From an uncultured Rhodospirillaceae bacterium (GTDB lineage: Bacteria > Pseudomonadota > Alphaproteobacteria > MPNO01 > UBA2964): DNA of 64,000 bases. Positions within the stretch are counted from its first letter, which is position 1. Every line of letters begins with the position of its first letter. Positions 20,076 to 61,197 of this stretch are shown here, in pieces. The stretch lies in assembly GCA_964492555.1 (NCBI GenBank), contig CAZBKQ010000007.1, positions 21,534-85,533 on the forward strand, written 5' to 3'. The notes under the pieces were generated by a model. The model made no database searches. It was given only the letters and a program-made list of their open reading frames with translations, and was not told where the DNA came from. The translations under genes and the position numbers were made by a program.

Positions 20076-20585
20076 TTGATGACAGAAACCGGGGAAAGCC
20101 AGGCGGCTGATAGCAGCGTTCCCGCCGAGCGATTTTTTTTGGTCGTGGTCGACGCTTCCAAAGAGCTTCGCGTCGCGTTGCGCTTTGCCGCCCAGCGGGC
20201 GCGCAAAACCGGTGGCCGCGTCGCGCTCCTCTCGGTTCTGGAACCGGCCGATTTTCAGCACTGGATGGCGGTCGAGGAAAAAATGCGCGAGGAACGCCGC
20301 GAAGAGGCGGAACGCCTGCTCGAAAAGCTGGGGGCGGAAGTCACTGAAATCACCGGCGACATGCCGTCGCTTTATGTCCGGGAAGGCAAGGTTAGCGACG
20401 AAATTCTCGGGCTGATCAAGGAAGAACCCAACATATCCATCCTGGTGCTGGGGGCGGGGACGGACAAAAAAGGCCCCGGACCGCTGGTATCCTCCCTGGC
20501 GGGCAAGCTTTCCGGTGAATTTCCGGTTCCGATCACGGTCGTGCCCGGCACGTTGAGCGACGCTCAAATTGACGCCCTGACCTGA
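20076..20585 (+). CDS. Universal stress protein (UspA family).
   Basis: 169 aa with an Usp-like alpha/beta fold pattern (FLVVVDASKE...VALLSVLEP...ILVLGAGTDKKGPG...GSVSE-like C-terminus). It starts 3 nt after the preceding gene. Confidence 0.7.
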   Translation: MMTETGESQAADSSVPAERFFLVVVDASKELRVALRFAAQRARKTGGRVALLSVLEPADFQHWMAVEEKMREERREEAERLLEKLGAEVTEITGDMPSLYVREGKVSDEILGLIKEEPNISILVLGAGTDKKGPGPLVSSLAGKLSGEFPVPITVVPGTLSDAQIDALT

Positions 20586-20747
20586 TCGCCTCTCCACCGG
20601 ATTTCAGTTTTTAACCATAAAAAATTCGATAATATTACCGGATTGTTTGGTTTTCCACACGTTTCCACTTTCGAAACGTTGTCGAAAAATGCGCTCCATC
20701 AACAGGTTAGAGAAAATCCGAATCACCGGGCGATTCTCCATCTTGTA

Positions 20748-20766
20748 AATTAACGTCTCGTTAATT
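20748..20766. promoter_or_regulatory. Perfect inverted repeat AATTAACG-tct-CGTTAATT (TTAA-N7-TTAA, CtrA-box-like) in an AT-rich spacer upstream of the glucosaminidase gene.
   Basis: Seen directly in the sequence. It sits about 125 nt upstream of the 20890 start. A TTTTCCACA (DnaA-box-like) motif lies at about 20651..20659. Confidence 0.3.
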
Positions 20767-20889
20767 AAATCTCCGCTCACGCCTCATCGTAACTGGGCGA
20801 CCTCTTTAGTTTCGGCAGCCGCTGGACGGCGGGAAATCCCGATCCGGAAATGACCGGCGGGGAGAGTGATGTCGGAGGGTTGAGCGATT

Positions 20890-21963
20890 TTGGAACAGAA
20901 AGCCACAAACAGAATTTTCGATGCGGGCCTGCTCGGGATAGCGGGCGCGGGCGGCGCGTTGCTTTATGGGCTGATGTCCCTGACGGGGCTATTTGCCCCT
21001 GGCGAGACCCTGTCCGCGGCGAATACGGGAAAATCTGCTCCCGCCGTTGTCGCGGCCGGCCCCCGCGTCGAACATTTGCTGGGCCCCGCGACGAATGACT
21101 ACGAACCCGCGCGCGTCGTGCGGGAGGGTCATGCCACGCTGCAAATTGCGCCGGTCAGCCTGCTGCGGCGCTATTACGATTCCATCGGCTTCGATCTGTC
21201 CCGCGTGCGCGATCACGGCCGGGTGCCGCGTCTGATTCTGGCCGCGCTGCCGAGGGATATTCAAAGTGTCGAACAGCCGCGTCTTCGCAAAATGCTGTTT
21301 ATGCAGACAACATTGCCGCTGATCCTCCATGTGAATGAAAAAATCATGGCAGATCGCAAACGCGTAATGTCGCTGCGCGGCAAGGCCGAGGAAGGCGGAG
21401 TTCTGAGCCCCGCCGAAAAGCGCTGGCTGACCGATCTGTCGGTGGAATATGGCGCCGGTGGGGAAAATCCGGATCCGCAAAACCCCGATTTTGCCTCTCT
21501 GCTGAAGCGTGTGGATATCCTGCCGCCGTCCCTTGCGCTGGCGCAGTCGGCCGAGGAAAGCGGTTGGGGTACGTCGCGATTCGCGCGTGAAGGCAATGCC
21601 TTGTTCGGCCAACGCACCTGGCGCGGCCCGAAGGGCATGATCCCGAAGAAGCGGGCCGCGGGTGAAAAATACCGGGTGCGGTCTTTCGACACACTGCTCG
21701 AGGGCGTCTGGGCCTACGCCTATAACCTGAATACCCATTTCGCCTATGCGAAGTTTCGCGAGCGCCGGGCGCGTTTACGGGCAGCGGGCAATACTCTGAC
21801 CGGTGATCGGCTGATCGACACTCTCGATCGTTATTCCGAAAGAGGTCAGGATTATATTCGGACGATTCGGACGATCATGCGGGTCAACGCGCTCAGCCAA
21901 TTCGACGGCGCGCGCTTGTCGCATCCGCCCGTCCTTCCGCCGGAGCCGTCCTCCGGCGCCTGA
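20890..21963 (+). CDS. Membrane-anchored mannosyl-glycoprotein endo-beta-N-acetylglucosaminidase domain protein (Bax/FlgJ-like).
   Basis: C-terminal glucosaminidase motif (LALAQSAEESGWGTSRFAREGNALFG) and an N-terminal TM helix. The track start at 20890 is a TTG; the next in-frame ATG is at about 20974. Confidence 0.72.
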   Translation: MEQKATNRIFDAGLLGIAGAGGALLYGLMSLTGLFAPGETLSAANTGKSAPAVVAAGPRVEHLLGPATNDYEPARVVREGHATLQIAPVSLLRRYYDSIGFDLSRVRDHGRVPRLILAALPRDIQSVEQPRLRKMLFMQTTLPLILHVNEKIMADRKRVMSLRGKAEEGGVLSPAEKRWLTDLSVEYGAGGENPDPQNPDFASLLKRVDILPPSLALAQSAEESGWGTSRFAREGNALFGQRTWRGPKGMIPKKRAAGEKYRVRSFDTLLEGVWAYAYNLNTHFAYAKFRERRARLRAAGNTLTGDRLIDTLDRYSERGQDYIRTIRTIMRVNALSQFDGARLSHPPVLPPEPSSGA

Positions 21964-25237: not shown

Positions 25238-25341
25238 ACCTAAAATCCGTAAACTGTCACCAATTATATAGGGCCGGGTGTGGAAAAGACACGTCGGGCG
25301 GGCCTTCTACGCCATAGGCGAACCCCGGCGACTGGTGTATA

Positions 25342-42677: not shown

Positions 42678-42947
42678 ATGTCGATTACCCAGGAAAAGAA
42701 GGCCGAGCTCATTAAGGAGTACGGCCGGGCCGAAGGCGACACGGGCTCGCCGGAGGTACAGGTCTCGATCCTCACTGAACGGATTCGCAACCTGACCGAC
42801 CATCTAAAGGAGCATAACAAGGATTTTCATTCCCGCCGTGGATTGCTGGTCATGGTCGGCCAGCGGCGCAGGCTCCTTGACTATCTGAAACGCAAGGATG
42901 AATCCCGCTATCAGGATCTCATCAAGAGTCTCGGCATCCGGCGCTGA
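42678..42947 (+). CDS. rpsO: 30S ribosomal protein S15.
   Basis: 89 aa, [44 protein letters not shown]. Confidence 0.95.
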
Positions 42948-43174
42948 CCGGATGTCCGTTTCACCGGGCGCGCCATATGGTTTGGCCGTCCGGTACCGTG
43001 CCGCATTCGGTGTGCGGCGCGTTGGCTGGCCGTGCGGCAGGGGCTGCGACGGCCGTTCACCGGCCGGGTAAGGAAAGACCCGAGGACCGGTGACATACGG
43101 CGCGGCAAGGGTGCTGGCGCCGATTGGCCGGAGCGCGTAGGGCGCTTCCGGTCAGGAAGGAAGGACGTATAGAT

Positions 43175-45328
43175 ATGTTCAACGTTTACCGTAAGGAAAT
43201 CGACTGGGGCGGCAGGCCGCTCGTTATCGAAACAGGAAAAATCGCCCGTCAGGCCGACGGCGCCGTCATGGTCTCCTATGGCGACACGGTGGTTCTGGCG
43301 ACGGCGGTCGCGCAAAAGGCGCCCAAGCCGGGCGTGGATTTCTTCCCGCTGACCGTCAACTATCAGGAAAAAACATTCGCCGCCGGCAAAATCCCCGGCG
43401 GCTTTTTCAAACGCGAAGGCCGGCCCAGCGAAAAGGAAACGCTGGTCTCCCGCCTGATTGACCGGCCGATCCGGCCGCTTTTCGCCAAGGGTTTCCAGAA
43501 TGAGACCCAGGTGATCTGCACCGTGCTGAGCCATGATCTGGAAAACGACCCGGATGTCGTTGCCTTGGTCGGCGCCTCCGCCGCGCTGACGATCTCGGGC
43601 ATTCCGTTCCTCGGGCCCATCGGGGCGGCGCGCGTCGCCCATGTGGATGGGGATTTTGTCCTCAACCCGGTGCCGGAACAGCTTGAGAATTCCAAGCTCG
43701 ACATGGTCGTCGCGGGCACGCATGACGCGGTCCTGATGGTGGAATCCGAAGCCGATCAGCTGTCGGAAGAAACCATGCTCGGCGCGGTGATGTTCGCCCA
43801 GCGCGAATTCCAGCCGGTGATCCAGGCGATCATCGAGCTGGCGGAACAGTGCGCCAAGGAACCCTGGGCGATTCCCGAACCGACTGCGGAAAAAGAAGCG
43901 CTGCGGGCCAGGATCAATGGTCTGGCGGAAGAGCCGCTGCGCGCGGCCTATCGCGAAACGGTCAAACAGACCCGTGTGGAGATGATTTCCGCCGCCAAGG
44001 AAGCCGCGCTGACGGCCTTGGCCGAGGAAGACCCGGAATATAACGGCCAGCTCGCGGCCGGGCTTCTCAAGGATCTCGAAAAGGACATCGTCCGGGGCGC
44101 CATTCTGGAAACCGGACAGCGGATTGACGGGCGCGACACCAAAACGGTTCGTCCGATCGAGGTCGAGGTCGGCATTCTGCCGCGGGCGCATGGAAGCGCC
44201 CTGTTCACGCGCGGCGAGACGCAGTCGCTCTGCGTTGCGACGCTCGGCACCGGTCAGGACGAACAGATCATCGACGCGCTGGAAGGCGAATATCGCGAAC
44301 GGTTCATGCTGCATTACAACTTCCCGCCCTATTCGGTCGGTGAAGCCAGCTTCCTGCGTTCGCCGGGACGCCGCGAAATCGGTCACGGCAAGCTCGCCTG
44401 GCGGGCGGTGCGCGCCGTGCTGCCAACCGCCGAGGATTTCCCCTATACGCTGCGTGTCGTTTCGGAAATCACTGAATCGAACGGTTCGTCCTCGATGGCG
44501 ACGGTGTGCGGTTCTTCCCTGTCCCTGATGGATGCGGGCGTGCCGCTCAAGCAACCAGTCGCCGGCATTGCGATGGGGCTGATCAAGGAAGATAGCGGTT
44601 ATGCCGTCCTTTCCGACATTCTGGGTGATGAGGATCATCTTGGCGACATGGACTTCAAGGTGGCGGGAACCGCCGACGGGGTCACCTCGTTGCAGATGGA
44701 TATCAAGATCACCGGCATTACCGAGGAAATCATGGAAACCGCGCTGAACCAGGCAAAGGACGGTCGGCTTCACATTCTCGGTGAAATGTCCAAGGGGATG
44801 GCCGGCGCCCGTGACGACGTCAGCCTGCTGGCGCCGCGCATCACGACCCTGTCCATTCCGAAGGACAAGATTCGCGATGTCATCGGCACTGGCGGCAAGG
44901 TGATCCGCGAGATTTGCGAGACCACCGGCGCCAAGATCGATATCGACGATGACGGCACCGTCAAGGTGGCAGCTGTCGATGGTGAGGCCGGAGAGGCCGC
45001 ACTTGAATGGATCAAGGGCATCGTTGCCGAACCCGAGGTCGGTGTGATCTATAACGGGAAGGTCGTGAAAGTTGTCGATTTCGGCGCTTTCGTGAATTTC
45101 CTGGGTGCCCGCGACGGGCTGGTTCACATCAGTGAGCTGGAACCGCGCCGGGTGAACAAGGTGACCGACGTCGTCAATGAAGGCGATGAGGTAAAGGTCA
45201 AGGTTCTGGCCGTCGACGACCGGGGCAAGGTCAAGCTTTCCATGAAGGTTGTCGATCAGGAAACCGGCGAGGAAATCCAGCCGGAACCCAAGGACAAGCC
45301 AAAGGAAGATGAATCGGCTGACGCCTGA
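43175..45328 (+). CDS. pnp: Polyribonucleotide nucleotidyltransferase (PNPase).
   Basis: ORF 43124..45328. Start refined to [16 protein letters not shown] after an AGGAAGGAAGGA RBS. Two RNase PH domains plus KH and S1 domains. Confidence 0.95.
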
Positions 45329-45342
45329 GCCGATTAAATCCA

Positions 45343-46110
45343 ATGATCGGGGGCCGCCGGATAATGTCCGCGCGGCCCCTTTTTTATTCCTTTCCCCGCG
45401 TGATCGGCCATCGCGGGGCAAGGGGACTCGCGCCTGAAAACACGCTGGCCGCCATTCGCGCGGCCCGGGATTGCGGGCTCTCATGGATTGAGGTCGACGT
45501 GCGGCTGACTCGCGATGCGGTGCCGGTGCTGTCGCACGATCCTGTTATTGCGCCGGGTGACGGTGCCTTGCCCGTTCGGATTGCCGCGCTTGACGCAGAA
45601 ATGTTGAGAAAACGGATTCCCTCCGTCCTAGGACTTGCCGATGCTCTTGCGCTGGCCCGCGCGTCAGGCCTCAACGTCAATGTGGAGCTTAAATCCGAAG
45701 GCTCCCGTAATAGCGTTCTGGCGCGCAAAGTGGCTGCGCAAATAACAGCTTTTGACCGCATCTCTGGCCCATCGGTTCTGCTCTCCAGTTTCGAGAAGGA
45801 TCTGGTTGCCGATATGGCGGCGCTGCTGCCGCACATTCCCCGGGCGCTTATCCTGGCCCGCGCAGCGCCGCGGGATATTGAAGCCGCCCGGCGGCTGGAA
45901 TGCGTCAGTGTACATATTGCGCGCCGCGGCGCCGATTTCGGGACCATTGCGGCCATTCACCGGCACGGCATGCGCTGTGCGGTTTATACCGTGAACCGGG
46001 TGGCGGCGGCGCGCCGCTTGTTCGCGGCGGGGGCGGACGGCGTCTTTACCGACCGGCCGGACCGGTTTTCCGCCATCGAAAAAAATCGCCCCCGGGGCTG
46101 GTCGTTCTGA
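45343..46110 (+). CDS. Glycerophosphodiester phosphodiesterase family protein.
   Basis: GDPD motif (VIGHRGARGLAPENTLAAIRAA...WIEVDVRLTRDAVPVLSHD). Confidence 0.75.
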   Translation: MIGGRRIMSARPLFYSFPRVIGHRGARGLAPENTLAAIRAARDCGLSWIEVDVRLTRDAVPVLSHDPVIAPGDGALPVRIAALDAEMLRKRIPSVLGLADALALARASGLNVNVELKSEGSRNSVLARKVAAQITAFDRISGPSVLLSSFEKDLVADMAALLPHIPRALILARAAPRDIEAARRLECVSVHIARRGADFGTIAAIHRHGMRCAVYTVNRVAAARRLFAAGADGVFTDRPDRFSAIEKNRPRGWSF

Positions 46111-47987: not shown

Positions 47988-48778
47988 GTCTTCTGAACGG
48001 AAAAAAGGGGCTCGTCCTCGGGGTCGCCAACGACCATTCGATCGCCTGGGGGATCGCCGATGCGGCGGCCCGGGCCGGCGCGTCGCTCGCCTTCACCTAC
48101 CAGACCGACTCGTTCGAAAAACGGGTCCGTCCGCTGGCGGAATCGGCGGGGGCGGATATTATCACCCCCTGCGATGTGGTTGACGACGCCAGCCTCGATG
48201 CGGTGTTCGCCGAAATCGGTGAAAAATGGGGCGGGCTCGATTTTGTCGTGCATTCCGTCGCCTATTCCGACAAGAACGAGCTGACCGGCGCCTATTCGGA
48301 TACGTCGCGGGAAAACTTCCTCCGCAGCCTCGACATCTCCTGCTATTCCTTCACCGCCATTGCGCGCCGCGCCGCGGCCCTGATGGAAAATGGCGGCAGC
48401 CTGATCACTTTGACCTATTCCGGCGCGGAACGGGTGATGCCGAATTATAACGTGATGGGGGTCGCCAAGGCGGCGCTGGAAGCCAGTGTCCGCTATCTCG
48501 CCGCTGATCTTGGGCCGAAATCGATCCGGGTAAACGCGATTTCCGCCGGACCGATGCGCACCCTGGCGGGCAGCGCCGTGGGCGGCGCGCGCGAGGTCTA
48601 TAAATGGAACGCCGAATATTCACCGCTGCGGCGTAATACCCTGCTGGATGATGTCGGCGGGGCCGGGCTTTATTTGCTGAGCGATCTTTCCGCCGGTGTT
48701 TCGGGTGAAATCATGCATGTCGATTCGGGCTTCAATGTCGTCGGCGTGCCCGATCTGTTGCGCCACAGAAAAGAATAA
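47984..48778 (+). CDS. fabI: Enoyl-[ACP] reductase (NADH) FabI.
   Basis: [14 protein letters not shown]-terminus and a YxxMxxxK-type catalytic region ([12 protein letters not shown]). Its start overlaps the fabB stop. Confidence 0.9.
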
Positions 48779-48830
48779 AAATTTTCTTTTGAATGGTTCC
48801 AATCTGAAAAGGATTGCTTATATAGGAACC

Positions 48831-49250
48831 ATGAACGACAGACCCTATTCACGCATCATTGCGATATTGCAGAAGGCCGGGCTTCGCCCGACCCGCCAGC
48901 GCATGGCCCTTGGCCGGCTTCTGTTCGAATCCGGCGACCGGCATGTGACCGCCGAAGATGTTCACGCCGAAGCCGTCGCCGTCGGTGTAAAGGTGTCCCT
49001 GGGCACGGTTTACAACACCTTGCACCAGTTCACCGATGCCGGGCTGGTCCGGGAGGTCGTGGTTGAACCGGGCAAGACCTATTTCGATACCAATACCTCG
49101 TCCCATCATCATTTCTTTTTTGAAGATAGCGGCGTTATCCGCGATATTCCGGCGGAAGAGGTTGCGATTGAGCGCCTGCCCGAACTGCCCGATGGGGTTT
49201 CGCTTTCGCGCGTCGATGTGGTCGTCCGCGTTACCGGAGACGAAGGCTGA
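48831..49250 (+). CDS. irr: Fur-family iron response regulator (Irr-like), Cys-less with an HHH motif.
   Basis: ORF 48696..49250. Start refined to MNDRPYSRIIAIL. SSHHHFFFED matches the HHH motif described for rhizobial Irr. The irr-adjacent-to-fabABI order is recalled from Rhizobiales. Confidence 0.68.
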   Translation: MNDRPYSRIIAILQKAGLRPTRQRMALGRLLFESGDRHVTAEDVHAEAVAVGVKVSLGTVYNTLHQFTDAGLVREVVVEPGKTYFDTNTSSHHHFFFEDSGVIRDIPAEEVAIERLPELPDGVSLSRVDVVVRVTGDEG

Positions 49251-49264
49251 GCGGGGATTTTAAT

Positions 49265-49279
49265 TTATAATCATTGTAA
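49265..49279. promoter_or_regulatory. PerR/Fur-box-like palindrome TTATAATCATTGTAA upstream of the rubrerythrin gene.
   Basis: It matches TTATAATnATTATAA at 14 of 15 positions. It lies in a 190 bp AT-rich spacer about 170 nt upstream of the rubrerythrin start. Coordinates are +/-2 nt. Confidence 0.35.
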
Positions 49280-49444
49280 AGAATTGTGTATAGGATTGAT
49301 TTCATGAAAAGTTCACTTGAATAATTTATGGGTTTTCCTATATAAGAGGAATGTTGGCGCCACAATGGGGCCGGCGTCGCCCGAACGGGCACAATACAAG
49401 CCATCCGTCCGGATGGCGGCCAGAAGAAGGTAAAGGAGACACCG

Positions 49445-49861
49445 ATGGCAGGACTTAAGGGGACCAAGACCGAAAACAATCTCAAGGAAGCGTTTGCCGG
49501 CGAATCGCAGGCCAACCGCCGTTATCTTTATTTCGCGCAGAAAGCCGACGTCGAAGGCTATAACGATGTCGCCGCCGTATTCCGTTCCACCGCGGAAGGC
49601 GAAACCGGCCACGCGCACGGCCATCTCGAATATCTTGAGGAAGTCGGCGATCCGGCGACCGGGGAACCGATCGGCGATACCGCCAGCAACCTGAAGGCGT
49701 CGGTCGCGGGGGAAACCCACGAATACACCGACATGTATCCGGGCATGGCGAAGGAAGCCCGTGAAGAAGGGTTCGACGAAATCGCGACCTGGTTTGAGAC
49801 CCTCGCCAAGGCGGAACGTTCCCATGCGGGCCGCTTTCAGAAGGCTCTCGACGAGCTTTAA
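49445..49861 (+). CDS. Rubrerythrin-family (erythrin-like) diiron protein without a rubredoxin domain.
   Basis: Two ExxH diiron motifs ([16 protein letters not shown] and the ExxH at SHAGRFQ), ferritin-like four-helix pattern; 138 aa. Confidence 0.85.
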
Positions 49862-57901: not shown

Positions 57902-58777
57902 TCAGGGCCCCTGCCGGGATGCTTTCCGCACCTTGTCCGCAACCCCCTGATCATGCGACGCAAGGATAACGAGATCCGGAATTTTTTCTTTAAGGGCCCG
58001 GACTTTTGCGTATGAGGCGCGCAATGTCGCTGCGTCGCCGGTGCCGGGGGTCTGTCCCCGCATCAGCATTTCCGTGTCATAGGCGAGGTCCCCAATCAAC
58101 AATAGTGGCTTCATGCCGGCGCTTCGCACCAGCAGCGAGAGGGACCCCGCCGTATGGCCGGGCGTCGGCAGCGCGACCAGCGATCCATCCCCCATGACGT
58201 CGAAAATGCCGTCAAAAGCCTCAAATAAAGGATCTTTCACCGGCTTGAAGGCGATCTGGCGCCATTTTGCGCCCGGCAACTCGATATGATCCCGCAATAT
58301 CCATTTGCGTTCCGGGTGCGGAAGCGACAGTTGCGCCCACTCGTCCTGGCTGACCAGCAATTCCGCTTGCGGCACATCGGAAATCCCCCCGATATGATCG
58401 AAATGGAGATGGGAGACAATTACCTTCGCGACTGCGGCGGCGGCATGGCCATGTTTTTCCAATTGCCGCCCGAGCGCGTCTTCCGGTCCGATATGCAGCC
58501 TGAAAATTCTGCGCAACAGGAACCGGCCGACGGCGCTGTCGATATAACCGGGATCCAGCTTGATAGCCGGGTCCATCCCGGTATCGAACAGGATCAACCC
58601 GTCCCGATGTTCAATCGCGAAGCAATGCAGCGGTATCCTGATCCAGCTTCGCGACGTCAAAACCCACCAGATTTGGGGCAAAAGGCTGCCATGGCGGTGT
58701 TCCCGGTGCTGTTCGCCCCACCCGGTCGACAGGGTTTTGATTGATTTGATAGCCGCGTCTTCTAGAGGCTGTGCCAT
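57902..58777 (-). CDS. MBL-fold metallo-hydrolase, N-acyl homoserine lactonase-like.
   Basis: HxHxDH motif (SHLHFDHIGG) plus a downstream His and Asp pattern; 291 aa. Confidence 0.72.
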   Translation of the reverse strand: MAQPLEDAAIKSIKTLSTGWGEQHREHRHGSLLPQIWWVLTSRSWIRIPLHCFAIEHRDGLILFDTGMDPAIKLDPGYIDSAVGRFLLRRIFRLHIGPEDALGRQLEKHGHAAAAVAKVIVSHLHFDHIGGISDVPQAELLVSQDEWAQLSLPHPERKWILRDHIELPGAKWRQIAFKPVKDPLFEAFDGIFDVMGDGSLVALPTPGHTAGSLSLLVRSAGMKPLLLIGDLAYDTEMLMRGQTPGTGDAATLRASYAKVRALKEKIPDLVILASHDQGVADKVRKASRQGP

Positions 58778-60414: not shown

Positions 60415-61197
60415 TCAGACACGCCAGGCGGAATGGATGGCGACGATGCCGCCGCTCAGCGGCTGCCAGGTAACGTTGCCGAATCCGGCGGCGCGGAATT
60501 CTCCGGCCAGCGTTTCCGGCTCGGGGAATGTCCGGATGCTTTCCGCCAGATAACGGTATGACTCCGCGTCGTCCGCGACCCGTTGGCCGAGCCAGGGCAG
60601 TACGTTCAGCGAATAGGCGTCATAAACCGGCTTCAAAACCGGCAATACGGCGGGGGAGAATTCCAGACACAGAAAATGCCCGCCGAAATCCATCACCCGG
60701 TGAAAATCCGCCATTGCCGCGGCGCGGTCCGTCACATTGCGCAACCCGAAGGAAATCGTCGCGCCATCAAAGGACCGGTCGGCAAAGGGCAATGATTCGG
60801 CGGGCGCGGTGACAAAGTCGAAACCGGACAGATACCCCCTATCGATGGCGCGGCTCTCCGCCTGTTCCAGCATCGCGCTATTGGGATCGCAGAGCGTAAT
60901 CGGGTGCTTCGGGCCACTCTTTCCGGCCTGTTCCAGCCGCGCGCGCATACGAAAGGCGATATCACCCGTACCGGCCGCGATATCGGCCAGCCGCATGGCG
61001 GGTCGCGGGTCAAGCCGGTCGATCAGCAGCTTTTTCCACACCCGGTGCAGACCGCCGCTCATCAGATCGTTCATCAGGTCGTACCGCCCGGCGACGGAAT
61101 CGAACACGCCGCGTACCCGTGTCGCGTGTTCATCCAGCTTCACCTCTTCGAAGCCGAAATCCCTGACTCTGTTGTTGGAATCCGCTTTTGCGTTCAT
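60415..61197 (-). CDS. ubiE: Demethylmenaquinone / 2-methoxy-6-polyprenyl-1,4-benzoquinol C-methyltransferase UbiE.
   Basis: SAM-MTase motif I (LADIAAGTGDIA) and the UbiE-family N-terminus (FGFEEV...KVRGVFDSVAGRYDLMNDLMS). Confidence 0.9.
   Translation of the reverse strand: MNAKADSNNRVRDFGFEEVKLDEHATRVRGVFDSVAGRYDLMNDLMSGGLHRVWKKLLIDRLDPRPAMRLADIAAGTGDIAFRMRARLEQAGKSGPKHPITLCDPNSAMLEQAESRAIDRGYLSGFDFVTAPAESLPFADRSFDGATISFGLRNVTDRAAAMADFHRVMDFGGHFLCLEFSPAVLPVLKPVYDAYSLNVLPWLGQRVADDAESYRYLAESIRTFPEPETLAGEFRAAGFGNVTWQPLSGGIVAIHSAWRV

Follow-up and report, generated by a model that had tools for sequence, protein, structure and literature searches.

What does an unusually AT-rich spacer do in front of a glucosaminidase gene, and does it mark a replication origin or a promoter? 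The question is raised by a contig of an uncultured Rhodospirillaceae bacterium (CAZBKQ010000007.1, assembly GCA_964492555.1), of which we analysed a stretch of 64,000 nucleotides (positions 21,534 to 85,533), hereafter the window. The spacer, 304 bp in length, lies between a gene of the universal stress protein family (usp) and a gene for a Bax-like glucosaminidase (bax), and an earlier reading of the bare sequence had offered both interpretations, a chromosomal origin and a cell-cycle-controlled promoter of the downstream gene. We conclude that the spacer is very likely a promoter and leader region and no origin. It probably serves as the promoter and 5' leader of the bax gene and takes the form of a composite module that is probably CtrA-gated.

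The words listed by the sequence-only reading are all present in the spacer. The perfect inverted repeat AATTAACG-TCT-CGTTAATT occupies 20748-20766 and reads TTAA-N7-TTAA(T) at 20750-20764, the palindromes TTAATTAA and TTTCGAAA are located at 20761-20768 and 20669-20676, and the DnaA-like words TTTTCCACA and then GTTTCCACT at 20651-20659 and 20661-20669, respectively. Three elements had been missed: TTAACCAT, an ungapped CtrA-type motif, at 20611-20618, ATCAACAGGTTA at 20698-20709, and a pair of GANTC sites at 20720-20736. Both classes of CtrA-type motif, as defined in PMC6180460, are present in the promoter region of the spacer. The genome had been credited with about 65 % GC and measures ~61 % (window mean 61.4 %), compared to 47.7 % for the spacer and 41.5 % for positions 20586-20785; at 40 %, positions 20601-20800 have the lowest GC content of all 200-bp stretches in the window. 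The stop codon of usp forms the left edge of the spacer, and the small open reading frames (ORFs) within it, which comprise 20-58 aa and invariably begin with GTG or TTG, do not appear to encode proteins, because conservation falls in short blocks.

Which parts of the spacer are kept in related genomes? A large protein collection contains no homologue of the Bax-like protein with an identity between 56 % and 100 %, which makes a nucleotide alignment of close orthologues impossible, and four metagenome contigs that encode an identical Bax protein are uninformative because their spacers are 100 % identical to that of the window. A genome scan provided 80 loci at 37-56 % identity, all from metagenome-assembled genomes of Rhodospirillales-like marine alphaproteobacteria, and the gene order trpS-tauE-AlphProTM-usp-...-bax-deacetylase-dipeptidase is widely kept among related loci. 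Fifteen of these loci share, in the same order and with near-fixed spacing, the motifs TTAACCAT, TTCCGCA-N-CGGAA, ATCAA-N4-TTR, CGAATC and TTGATC-[TTAA-N7-TTAA]-(-10), which we refer to as blocks A to E and collectively as the module. Together with the window this gives 16 copies, seven of which are located directly at bax (L009, L010, L011, L012, L013, L018 and L027; bax-type) and eight upstream of a gene pair nfu-bax (L007, L008, L015, L021, L024, L025, L031 and L043; nfu-type). The copies were compared ungapped and anchored on the box, that is, the TTAA-N7-TTAA element of block E; when the distant spacers were aligned with MAFFT, the window came out of register. The comparison of orthologous spacers, which the sequence-only reading had put forward as a check, splits its claims in two: the CtrA-type motifs are conserved, and the DnaA-like words are absent.

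The agreement extends to the distances between the motifs. Six bax-type loci (all except L012) carry the full box at -141 to -147 from the bax start and TTAACCAT, with at most one mismatch, at -289 to -295, the corresponding positions in the window being -140 and -279; L012 has both motifs with one mismatch each. The Bax proteins of the six loci are 45-53 % identical to that of the window, and the GC content of the genomes ranges from 0.49 to 0.68. The palindrome lies at ~-230, ATCAA-N4-TTG at ~-195, TCGGCACC at ~-80 and GGAGGG at ~-14 in the relatives, and their counterparts in the window lie at -228 (palindrome), -192 (ATCAA), -78 (TCGGCAGC) and -16 (GGAGGG). Measured from the box, blocks B, C and D are offset by 88, 52 and 31 bp in the window and by 86-87, 50-52 and 29-32 bp in relatives, and the palindrome and ATCAA blocks remain in register throughout the 16 box-anchored rows. 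The length of the whole spacer is near-constant as well (304-312 bp in L010, L012, L013, L018 and L027).

The box itself is exact in 13 of the 16 module copies, with 11 different N7 sequences. Its TTAA halves and the 7-bp gap are invariant, whereas the bases that make the repeat of the window perfect vary elsewhere, a pattern that fits a CtrA box and speaks against an extended palindromic operator. Within ~590 kb of related loci there are 19 occurrences of TTAA-N7-TTAA, of which 13 belong to the module. A further one, in L039, reads TTAAGGCGTTATTAAC and is found 178 nt upstream of bax (3661) in an nfu-bax spacer; L036, L062 and L072, which are without the full module, have GTGTTAACCATG 112-138 nt upstream of bax, also in nfu-bax spacers. 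It is possible that the motifs in these four loci constitute independent CtrA-type inputs to bax. Among the metagenome matches to TTGATCTTAA-N7-TTAA that were listed (at least 120 stretches), all were chance occurrences in AT-rich DNA and none had the module.

Block B is probably a protein site, because the palindrome is conserved in sequence. Its consensus in relatives is TTTCCGCA(Y)NCG(R)AA, and in L015, L018 and L027 it starts 86-87 bp upstream of the CtrA box, close to the 88 bp of the window; the pattern was composed after seeing the window, so that its shuffle probability of 7e-5 is optimistic. Neither the FNR, LexA and Irr operators nor other alphaproteobacterial operators known to us fit the palindrome. 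An exact match to the palindrome consensus, TTCCGCACCCGGAA, occurs at 58310-58323 (minus strand) within ORF 57902-58777, which encodes a lactonase-like protein of the metallo-beta-lactamase fold; it is followed by an ATATC...GTTGC stretch and, at E = 0.027, is where the module profile scores its best nhmmer match within the window. This site is probably due to chance, but could be a second site for the block B regulator. Block C lies 50-52 bp upstream of the box in 11 of the 16 copies, and its sequence in the window, ATCAACAGGTTA, fits 12 of 13 positions (W = C) of the IHF consensus WATCAANNNNTTR, which was defined in enterobacteria. Block D contains GANTC, the CcrM methylation word, at the expected position in 11 of 16 copies by our own count from the anchored rows; CGAATC is found at -171 in the window and at -172 to -176 in L009, L013, L018 and L027. 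In shuffled sequences, the chance of finding the motif at its offset is 4.5e-4 for block C and 1.6e-3 for block D. GANTC is not enriched across the window (153 sites), and a minus-strand terminator-like hairpin that was called on block D is not conserved in relatives.

How might the box act on transcription? Conceivably, the answer lies in a promoter frame that surrounds it. Upstream of nfu, ~38 of 44 loci carry TTGA(T/C)N-N17-(C/T)A(T/C)NT(T/A), 50-126 nt before the ATG. The -35 hexamer of the window is predicted from an alignment of this frame with these ~38 nfu promoters and seven bax-type promoters. The consensus of alphaproteobacterial housekeeping or RpoH-like promoters, CTTGA-N16-17-C(C)ATNT, is known from Sinorhizobium and Rhodobacter, and both the ~38 nfu promoters and the module promoters fit its TTGA-N17 frame. 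In module loci the CtrA-type box is located exactly within the 17-bp spacer of the frame, as in TTGATC-TTAACTTCGGCTTAACC-CAATTT and TTGATC-TTAACACTTTCTTAAAC-GATTTA in relatives and TTGTAA-ATTAACGTCTCGTTAAT-TAAATC in the window. A TTGA(T/C)N-N17-CATNT frame devoid of the box is present at ~38 further nfu loci. By the same alignment, a transcription start is predicted near 20778, which would leave a leader of ~112 nt and place the box at about -28 to -14. A sigma-54 -24/-12 element is not visible in the spacer by eye (no scan was run), nor was an EcfG-type GGAAC-N16-17-CGTT promoter seen in it by eye. The cell-cycle promoter proposed earlier for the glucosaminidase gene is borne out to the extent that the full box and the half-type motif recur at the same positions upstream of orthologues and that the full box resides inside a recognisable -35/-10 frame.

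Is CtrA the protein that reads the TTAA motifs? We consider this fairly likely. CtrA recognises the full site TTAA-N7-TTAA, the variant TTAACCAT and TTAA half-sites, and its position rules have been worked out: activating sites lie near -35, with the edge of the box 23-24 nt from the start, and repressing sites lie over the -10 (PMC6180460, PMC11264516). The same TTAA-N7-TTAA and TTAACCAT words are found in the CtrA promoters of Caulobacter crescentus and Rhodobacter sphaeroides (fliQ, fliL, ccrM, pilA, fla2 and hemE Ps), in which the box likewise overlaps the core promoter, and the additional upstream site resembles the arrangement at pilA, where extra upstream CtrA sites delay and reduce expression (PMC11264516). 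The geometry is different, however. In promoters that CtrA is proven to activate, the box takes the place of the -35, with its end 23-24 nt from the start, whereas here a -35-like hexamer (TTGATC or TTGTAA) precedes the box, which fills the promoter spacer and ends ~14 nt before the predicted start, in between the classical activating and repressing positions. A further difference is the presence of an IHF-type site and a palindrome at fixed distances from the box. In this respect the module resembles IHF-assisted promoters with an upstream activator: the palindrome is located ~35 bp upstream of the IHF-core match at near-invariant spacing, and the IHF-core match, at which IHF is predicted to bind, ~50 bp upstream of the core promoter.

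We envision a scenario whereby a sigma-70-type promoter with a -35 hexamer TTGTAA (20743-48) and a -10 hexamer TAAATC (20766-71) harbours a CtrA-type operator as its 17-bp spacer. A dimer of a CtrA-family response regulator bound to the box would gate access of RNA polymerase and might thus tie bax expression to the cell cycle or to the motility state. Judging from the layout, repression or delayed expression appears slightly more likely than activation, because the box lies ~9 bp closer to the predicted start than in CtrA-activated promoters and because box-free versions with equally good hexamers look constitutive. Relative to the predicted start, a GANTC site would be positioned at ~-57, an IHF-type bend at -80 to -69, the palindromic operator at -116 to -102 and the distal CtrA-type motif TTAACCAT at -167 to -160. 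The palindrome might be the operator of a second, dimeric regulator, and the near-fixed layout suggests a bent or looped multi-protein complex.

If the module is a promoter, then which gene did it originally serve? The gene nfu, which encodes a NifU-like Fe-S carrier protein of ~185 aa, directly precedes bax in 47 of the 80 loci, where it follows the module or trpS. The 64 kb of the window contain no nfu, and ~10 relatives likewise are without nfu at the bax locus. In the eight nfu-type loci the same module precedes nfu-bax, with TTAACCAT, TTTCCGCATGCGGAA, ATCAACGGGTTG, CGAATC and TTGATC-TTAA-N7-TTAAC all located upstream of nfu. Moreover, the flank of the bax ribosome-binding site in the window, including a small hairpin, resembles the nfu-bax spacer of the nfu-type loci, a likeness that fits an ancestral order module-nfu-bax from which nfu has since disappeared. 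The ancestral module would have driven nfu and then bax; with nfu missing in the lineage of the window, the module now abuts bax, and it seems that nfu was lost or moved while its promoter stayed behind to drive bax. On its other side the module is less constrained. Most related loci retain usp on the upstream side. In L009, usp is missing and the module immediately follows trpS, indicating that the module goes with the downstream gene, and its left neighbour is not fixed because a 357-aa ORF is inserted in nfu-type loci. This ORF, at 1600-2673 in L015 and similarly in L007, L008 and L025, lies between usp and the module and displays, by eye, a Rieske-like CxH...CxxH pattern.

Several observations weigh against our interpretation. 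The hexamers of the window, TTGTAA and TAAATC, are weaker than those of its relatives and depart in this from the housekeeping or RpoH-like consensus; its -35, -10 and start site were assigned from alignment alone; and the 3' edge of the box at ~-14 is unlike the 23-24 nt of proven CtrA-activated promoters. In L005, the closest sequenced relative (Usp identity 84 %), the spacer is unrelated and shows none of these motifs, and the module-bearing loci represent a few clades and no independent samples. With default filters, nhmmer profiles of all 15 related copies, of the eight nfu-type and of the seven bax-type copies miss the spacer of the window, and with filters off only the nfu profile hits it in register, at E = 2.3. 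The module copy of the window is too diverged for profile detection, and because the profiles fail to detect it, its orthology rests on short colinear motifs, some of which were defined post hoc.

Might the motifs have arisen by chance in ordinary AT-rich intergenic DNA? TTAA-containing words are enriched in AT-rich spacers, and chance can account for the DnaA-like word: the window contains three copies of the relaxed DnaA box TTWTNCACA where 1.6 are expected, and the box arises in 1.5 % of shuffled spacers, a frequency that is unremarkable once the number of spacers is counted. For the CtrA-type motifs, the sole copies of TTAA-N7-TTAA (at 20750; 0.10 expected from dinucleotide shuffles) and of TTAACCAT (at 20611; 0.65 expected) in 64 kb are both found in the spacer. 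Shuffling the spacer itself 20,000 times with its dinucleotides preserved produced each of them in ~0.8 % of trials and the two jointly in 0.015 % (~1.5e-4), a joint probability that, along with the conservation of motif positions across genomes of differing GC content, leaves chance exceedingly improbable. Alternatively, the box might be the operator of another dimeric helix-turn-helix repressor, of the TetR or MarR type, that reads AATTAACG-N3-CGTTAATT and does not involve CtrA. In the genome of the window the inverted repeat is perfect over 8 + 8 bp, an operator within the promoter spacer is typical of simple repressors, and some Rhodospirillales are without parts of the CtrA relay (PMC2877005), which also counts among the points against a CtrA-gated promoter; ctrA is not in the 64-kb window. 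However, the 12 other exact copies keep the TTAA halves and the 7-bp gap only, with varying flanks (e.g., CTTAACAC...TTCTTAAAC and TTAATTTATGATTAACC), and the non-palindromic CtrA-type motif TTAACCAT co-occurs with the box, so we regard another repressor as unlikely. We consider it similarly doubtful, if not more so, that the spacer functions mainly at the RNA level, as a structured leader, riboswitch-like element or small RNA with incidental DNA motifs. In relatives, GTTAACCAA is indeed preceded by a hairpin that shows compensatory changes, and in both locus types, by our own reading of the sequences, a hairpin with differing stems (CCGG/CCGG, CCCA/TGGG, CGCCC/GGGCG and CCGGTT/AACCGG in the window, L007, L008, L015, L025, L013 and L018) directly precedes the bax ribosome-binding site, a recurrence that hints at a small conserved RNA element; the consensus fold of the relatives also pairs TCGGC (block G, in the leader) with GCCGG just 5' of the ribosome-binding site. 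Yet the covariation term of this fold is about zero, the first hairpin of the relatives is not evident in the window, whose leader has no stability beyond that of shuffled sequence (z = +0.81), the minus-strand terminator-like hairpin is unconserved, and Rfam 15 gave no match at gathering score across the whole window (best local E 2.7-4.4, unrelated families). Conservation is strongest in blocks A to E, which are located upstream of the predicted start and retain their sequence without covariation. A modest function of the leader is possible, though it is not the main signal.

What, then, of a chromosomal origin? In an origin of the Cori type, CtrA would silence replication while DnaA and IHF open AT-rich DNA. 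The spacer comprises the lowest-GC 200 bp of the window and combines two CtrA motifs, one full and one half, with a single IHF-core match and a single relaxed DnaA box, the classes of sites on which in-silico prediction of alphaproteobacterial origins relies (PMC1914354). That prediction also takes into account proximity to hemE or COG1806 (CC0001/RP001), suitable numbers of DnaA, CtrA and IHF sites, a high AT content and the absence of a rival spacer with as many sites from the genome; Cori has five DnaA boxes, five CtrA sites and one IHF site in >400 bp, the Wolbachia origin has three DnaA boxes, and some predicted origins have equally few CtrA sites (PMC1914354). Like these, the spacer is AT-rich intergenic DNA with CtrA-type and IHF-type motifs, but it differs from Cori in having two CtrA-type motifs instead of five and a single, unconserved relaxed DnaA box in 304 bp, in not lying beside hemE or COG1806, in the lack of a skew turn and in being embedded in a promoter frame before a gene. 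The DnaA-like words are absent from orthologous spacers; GTTTCCACT and TTTCGAAA align with the palindrome TTCCGCA-N-CGGAA and with no DnaA box, and TTTTCCACA may more simply be a second TTTCCAC word adjoining block B. Nor is TTTTCCACA specific to this spacer, as two further copies exist in the window, at 25279-25287 (minus strand), in the spacer just upstream of fur (25342), and at 61032-61040 (plus strand), near the ubiE/fpg divergent region. None of the origin genes hemE, COG1806, dnaA, parAB, gidAB, maf and rho was found by Pfam and NCBIfam among ~55 long ORFs of the window or among the genes called 9 kb past its left end, so that the DNA covered runs from ~30 kb before the spacer to ~43 kb after it. 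GC skew is negative at 1-10 kb, positive at 10-55 kb and negative at 55-60 kb, tracking gene orientation; it has the same, positive sign on either side of the spacer, and its cumulative minimum within the 64 kb falls at ~10 kb, at a flip in gene orientation, and not at 20.6 kb. Furthermore, mutS, glnD, murJ and trpS belong to 10 kb of genes oriented towards the spacer, the promoter frame around the box is also found in box-free promoters, and the module occurs in both usp-bax and oxygenase-nfu contexts. It travels with the nfu/bax promoter instead of marking a fixed chromosomal landmark, which counts against an origin. Taken together, the origin reading did not hold up, and we judge it very unlikely that the spacer is an origin or part of one. 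Just as remote is the idea that the five-part module is a replication-control element, be it a relocated or secondary origin or a DARS/datA-like locus bound by CtrA, IHF and an initiator-related protein, although such an element would account for both the AT-rich core and the rigid spacing.

That promoters can contain CtrA-type boxes is well known. What seems to be new here are the putative targets, a Bax-like glucosaminidase and nfu, neither of which is linked to CtrA in the literature that we found: a search for CtrA together with NifU, nfu or Bax-like glucosaminidases returned no relevant connection. Also apparently new are the position of the box within the promoter spacer and its rigid association with an IHF-type site and a palindrome in uncultured marine lineages. 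If CtrA binds the module, then the peptidoglycan glucosaminidase, and in relatives nfu, would join the CtrA-type regulon of uncultured marine Rhodospirillales-like bacteria, in which CtrA biology is, to our knowledge, essentially unstudied. The module would illustrate clearly how a CtrA box can be placed within the spacer of a promoter that otherwise looks constitutive, and its fixed distances define a testable multi-factor promoter along with a candidate operator for a second regulator. A corollary for annotation is that CtrA, IHF and DnaA-like words in AT-rich DNA are insufficient to mark an origin.

Table 1. Features of the module, the leader and the flanking genes (window coordinates; negative positions are relative to the bax start codon)
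Feature	Position	Strand	Remarks
Upstream gene, universal stress protein (Usp) family	20076-20585	+	Pfam Usp, E = 1.3e-15
AT-rich spacer	20586-20889, 304 bp	+	regulatory module (blocks A-E) and predicted leader of ~112 nt
Block A, TTAACCAT, ungapped CtrA-type motif	20611-20618	+	139 bp upstream of full box; -279 from start codon
TTTTCCACA, relaxed DnaA box of the sequence-only reading	20651-20659	+	matches TTWTNCACA; absent from orthologous spacers
Block B equivalent, inverted repeat ACGTTTC-CACTTTC-GAAACGT	20659-20679	.	contains GTTTCCACT and TTTCGAAA
Block C, ATCAACAGGTTA, IHF core match ATCAA-N4-TTR	20698-20709	+	2 such matches in 64 kb
Block D, CGAATC (GANTC site)	20719-20724	.	GAATC-N7-GATTC inverted repeat with second GANTC at 20732-20736
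Predicted -35 hexamer TTGTAA	20743-20748	+	from frame alignment; TTGATC in relatives
Block E, CtrA-type full box TTAACGTCTCGTTAA	20750-20764	.	within perfect inverted repeat 20748-20766; fills 17-bp promoter spacer
Predicted -10 hexamer TAAATC	20766-20771	+	same frame as GATTTA, CAATTT, CATCTA of relatives
Leader block G, TCGGCAGC (TCGGCACC in relatives)	20812-20819	+	-78 in window; -73 to -82 in relatives
Small hairpin CCGG-AAATGA-CCGG	20844-20857	+	just upstream of ribosome-binding site
Shine-Dalgarno GGAGGG	20874-20879	+	-16 in window; conserved at -13 to -16 in relatives
Bax-like glucosaminidase gene, putative promoter target	20890-21963	+	TTG start; Pfam Glucosaminidase 3.6e-14

The product of the downstream gene scores 53.9 bits with the Pfam Glucosaminidase model (cut-off 30.2) and 127.8 bits (E = 4.4e-37) with NCBIfam NF007681, 'protein bax', below the equivalog cut-off of 193; it is thus a relative of Bax but no equivalog, and its homologues are named 'Bax protein' in the source records. 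A hydrophobic N-terminal stretch in our own translation, IFDAGLLGIAGAGGALLYGLMSLTGLF, suggests that the protein is membrane-anchored at its N terminus.

The left part of the window is occupied on the minus strand by the pst operon, phoR and maeB, and ~9 kb past its left end there are phoB, a macro-domain gene, an MFS gene, pfkB, a bactofilin gene, nth, dapB and dnaJ. On the plus strand follow mutS, glnD, murJ, trpS, tauE, a gene for an Alph_Pro_TM protein, usp, the spacer and bax. Downstream of bax lie genes for a polysaccharide deacetylase and a D-Ala-D-Ala dipeptidase (both on the minus strand), then tsaB, rimI, fur, a plsC-like gene, miaB, phoH, ybeY, corC, lnt, metK, trmB, nusA, infB and truB, and onwards dut, coaBC, ubiB, ubiE and fpg. 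Two long ORFs overlap, 42911-45484 on the minus strand (857 aa; without a Pfam match) and 43124-45328 on the plus strand (734 aa). The most AT-rich 100 bp of the window (49257-49356, 24 % GC) closely follow a second Fur-family gene (48696-49250) and precede a CCG-domain/DUF3501 gene pair; they overlap the 3' end of ORF 49313-49825 (minus strand) and contain TTTATAATCATTGTAAAGAATTG, which resembles AT-rich operators of the Fur/Irr type.

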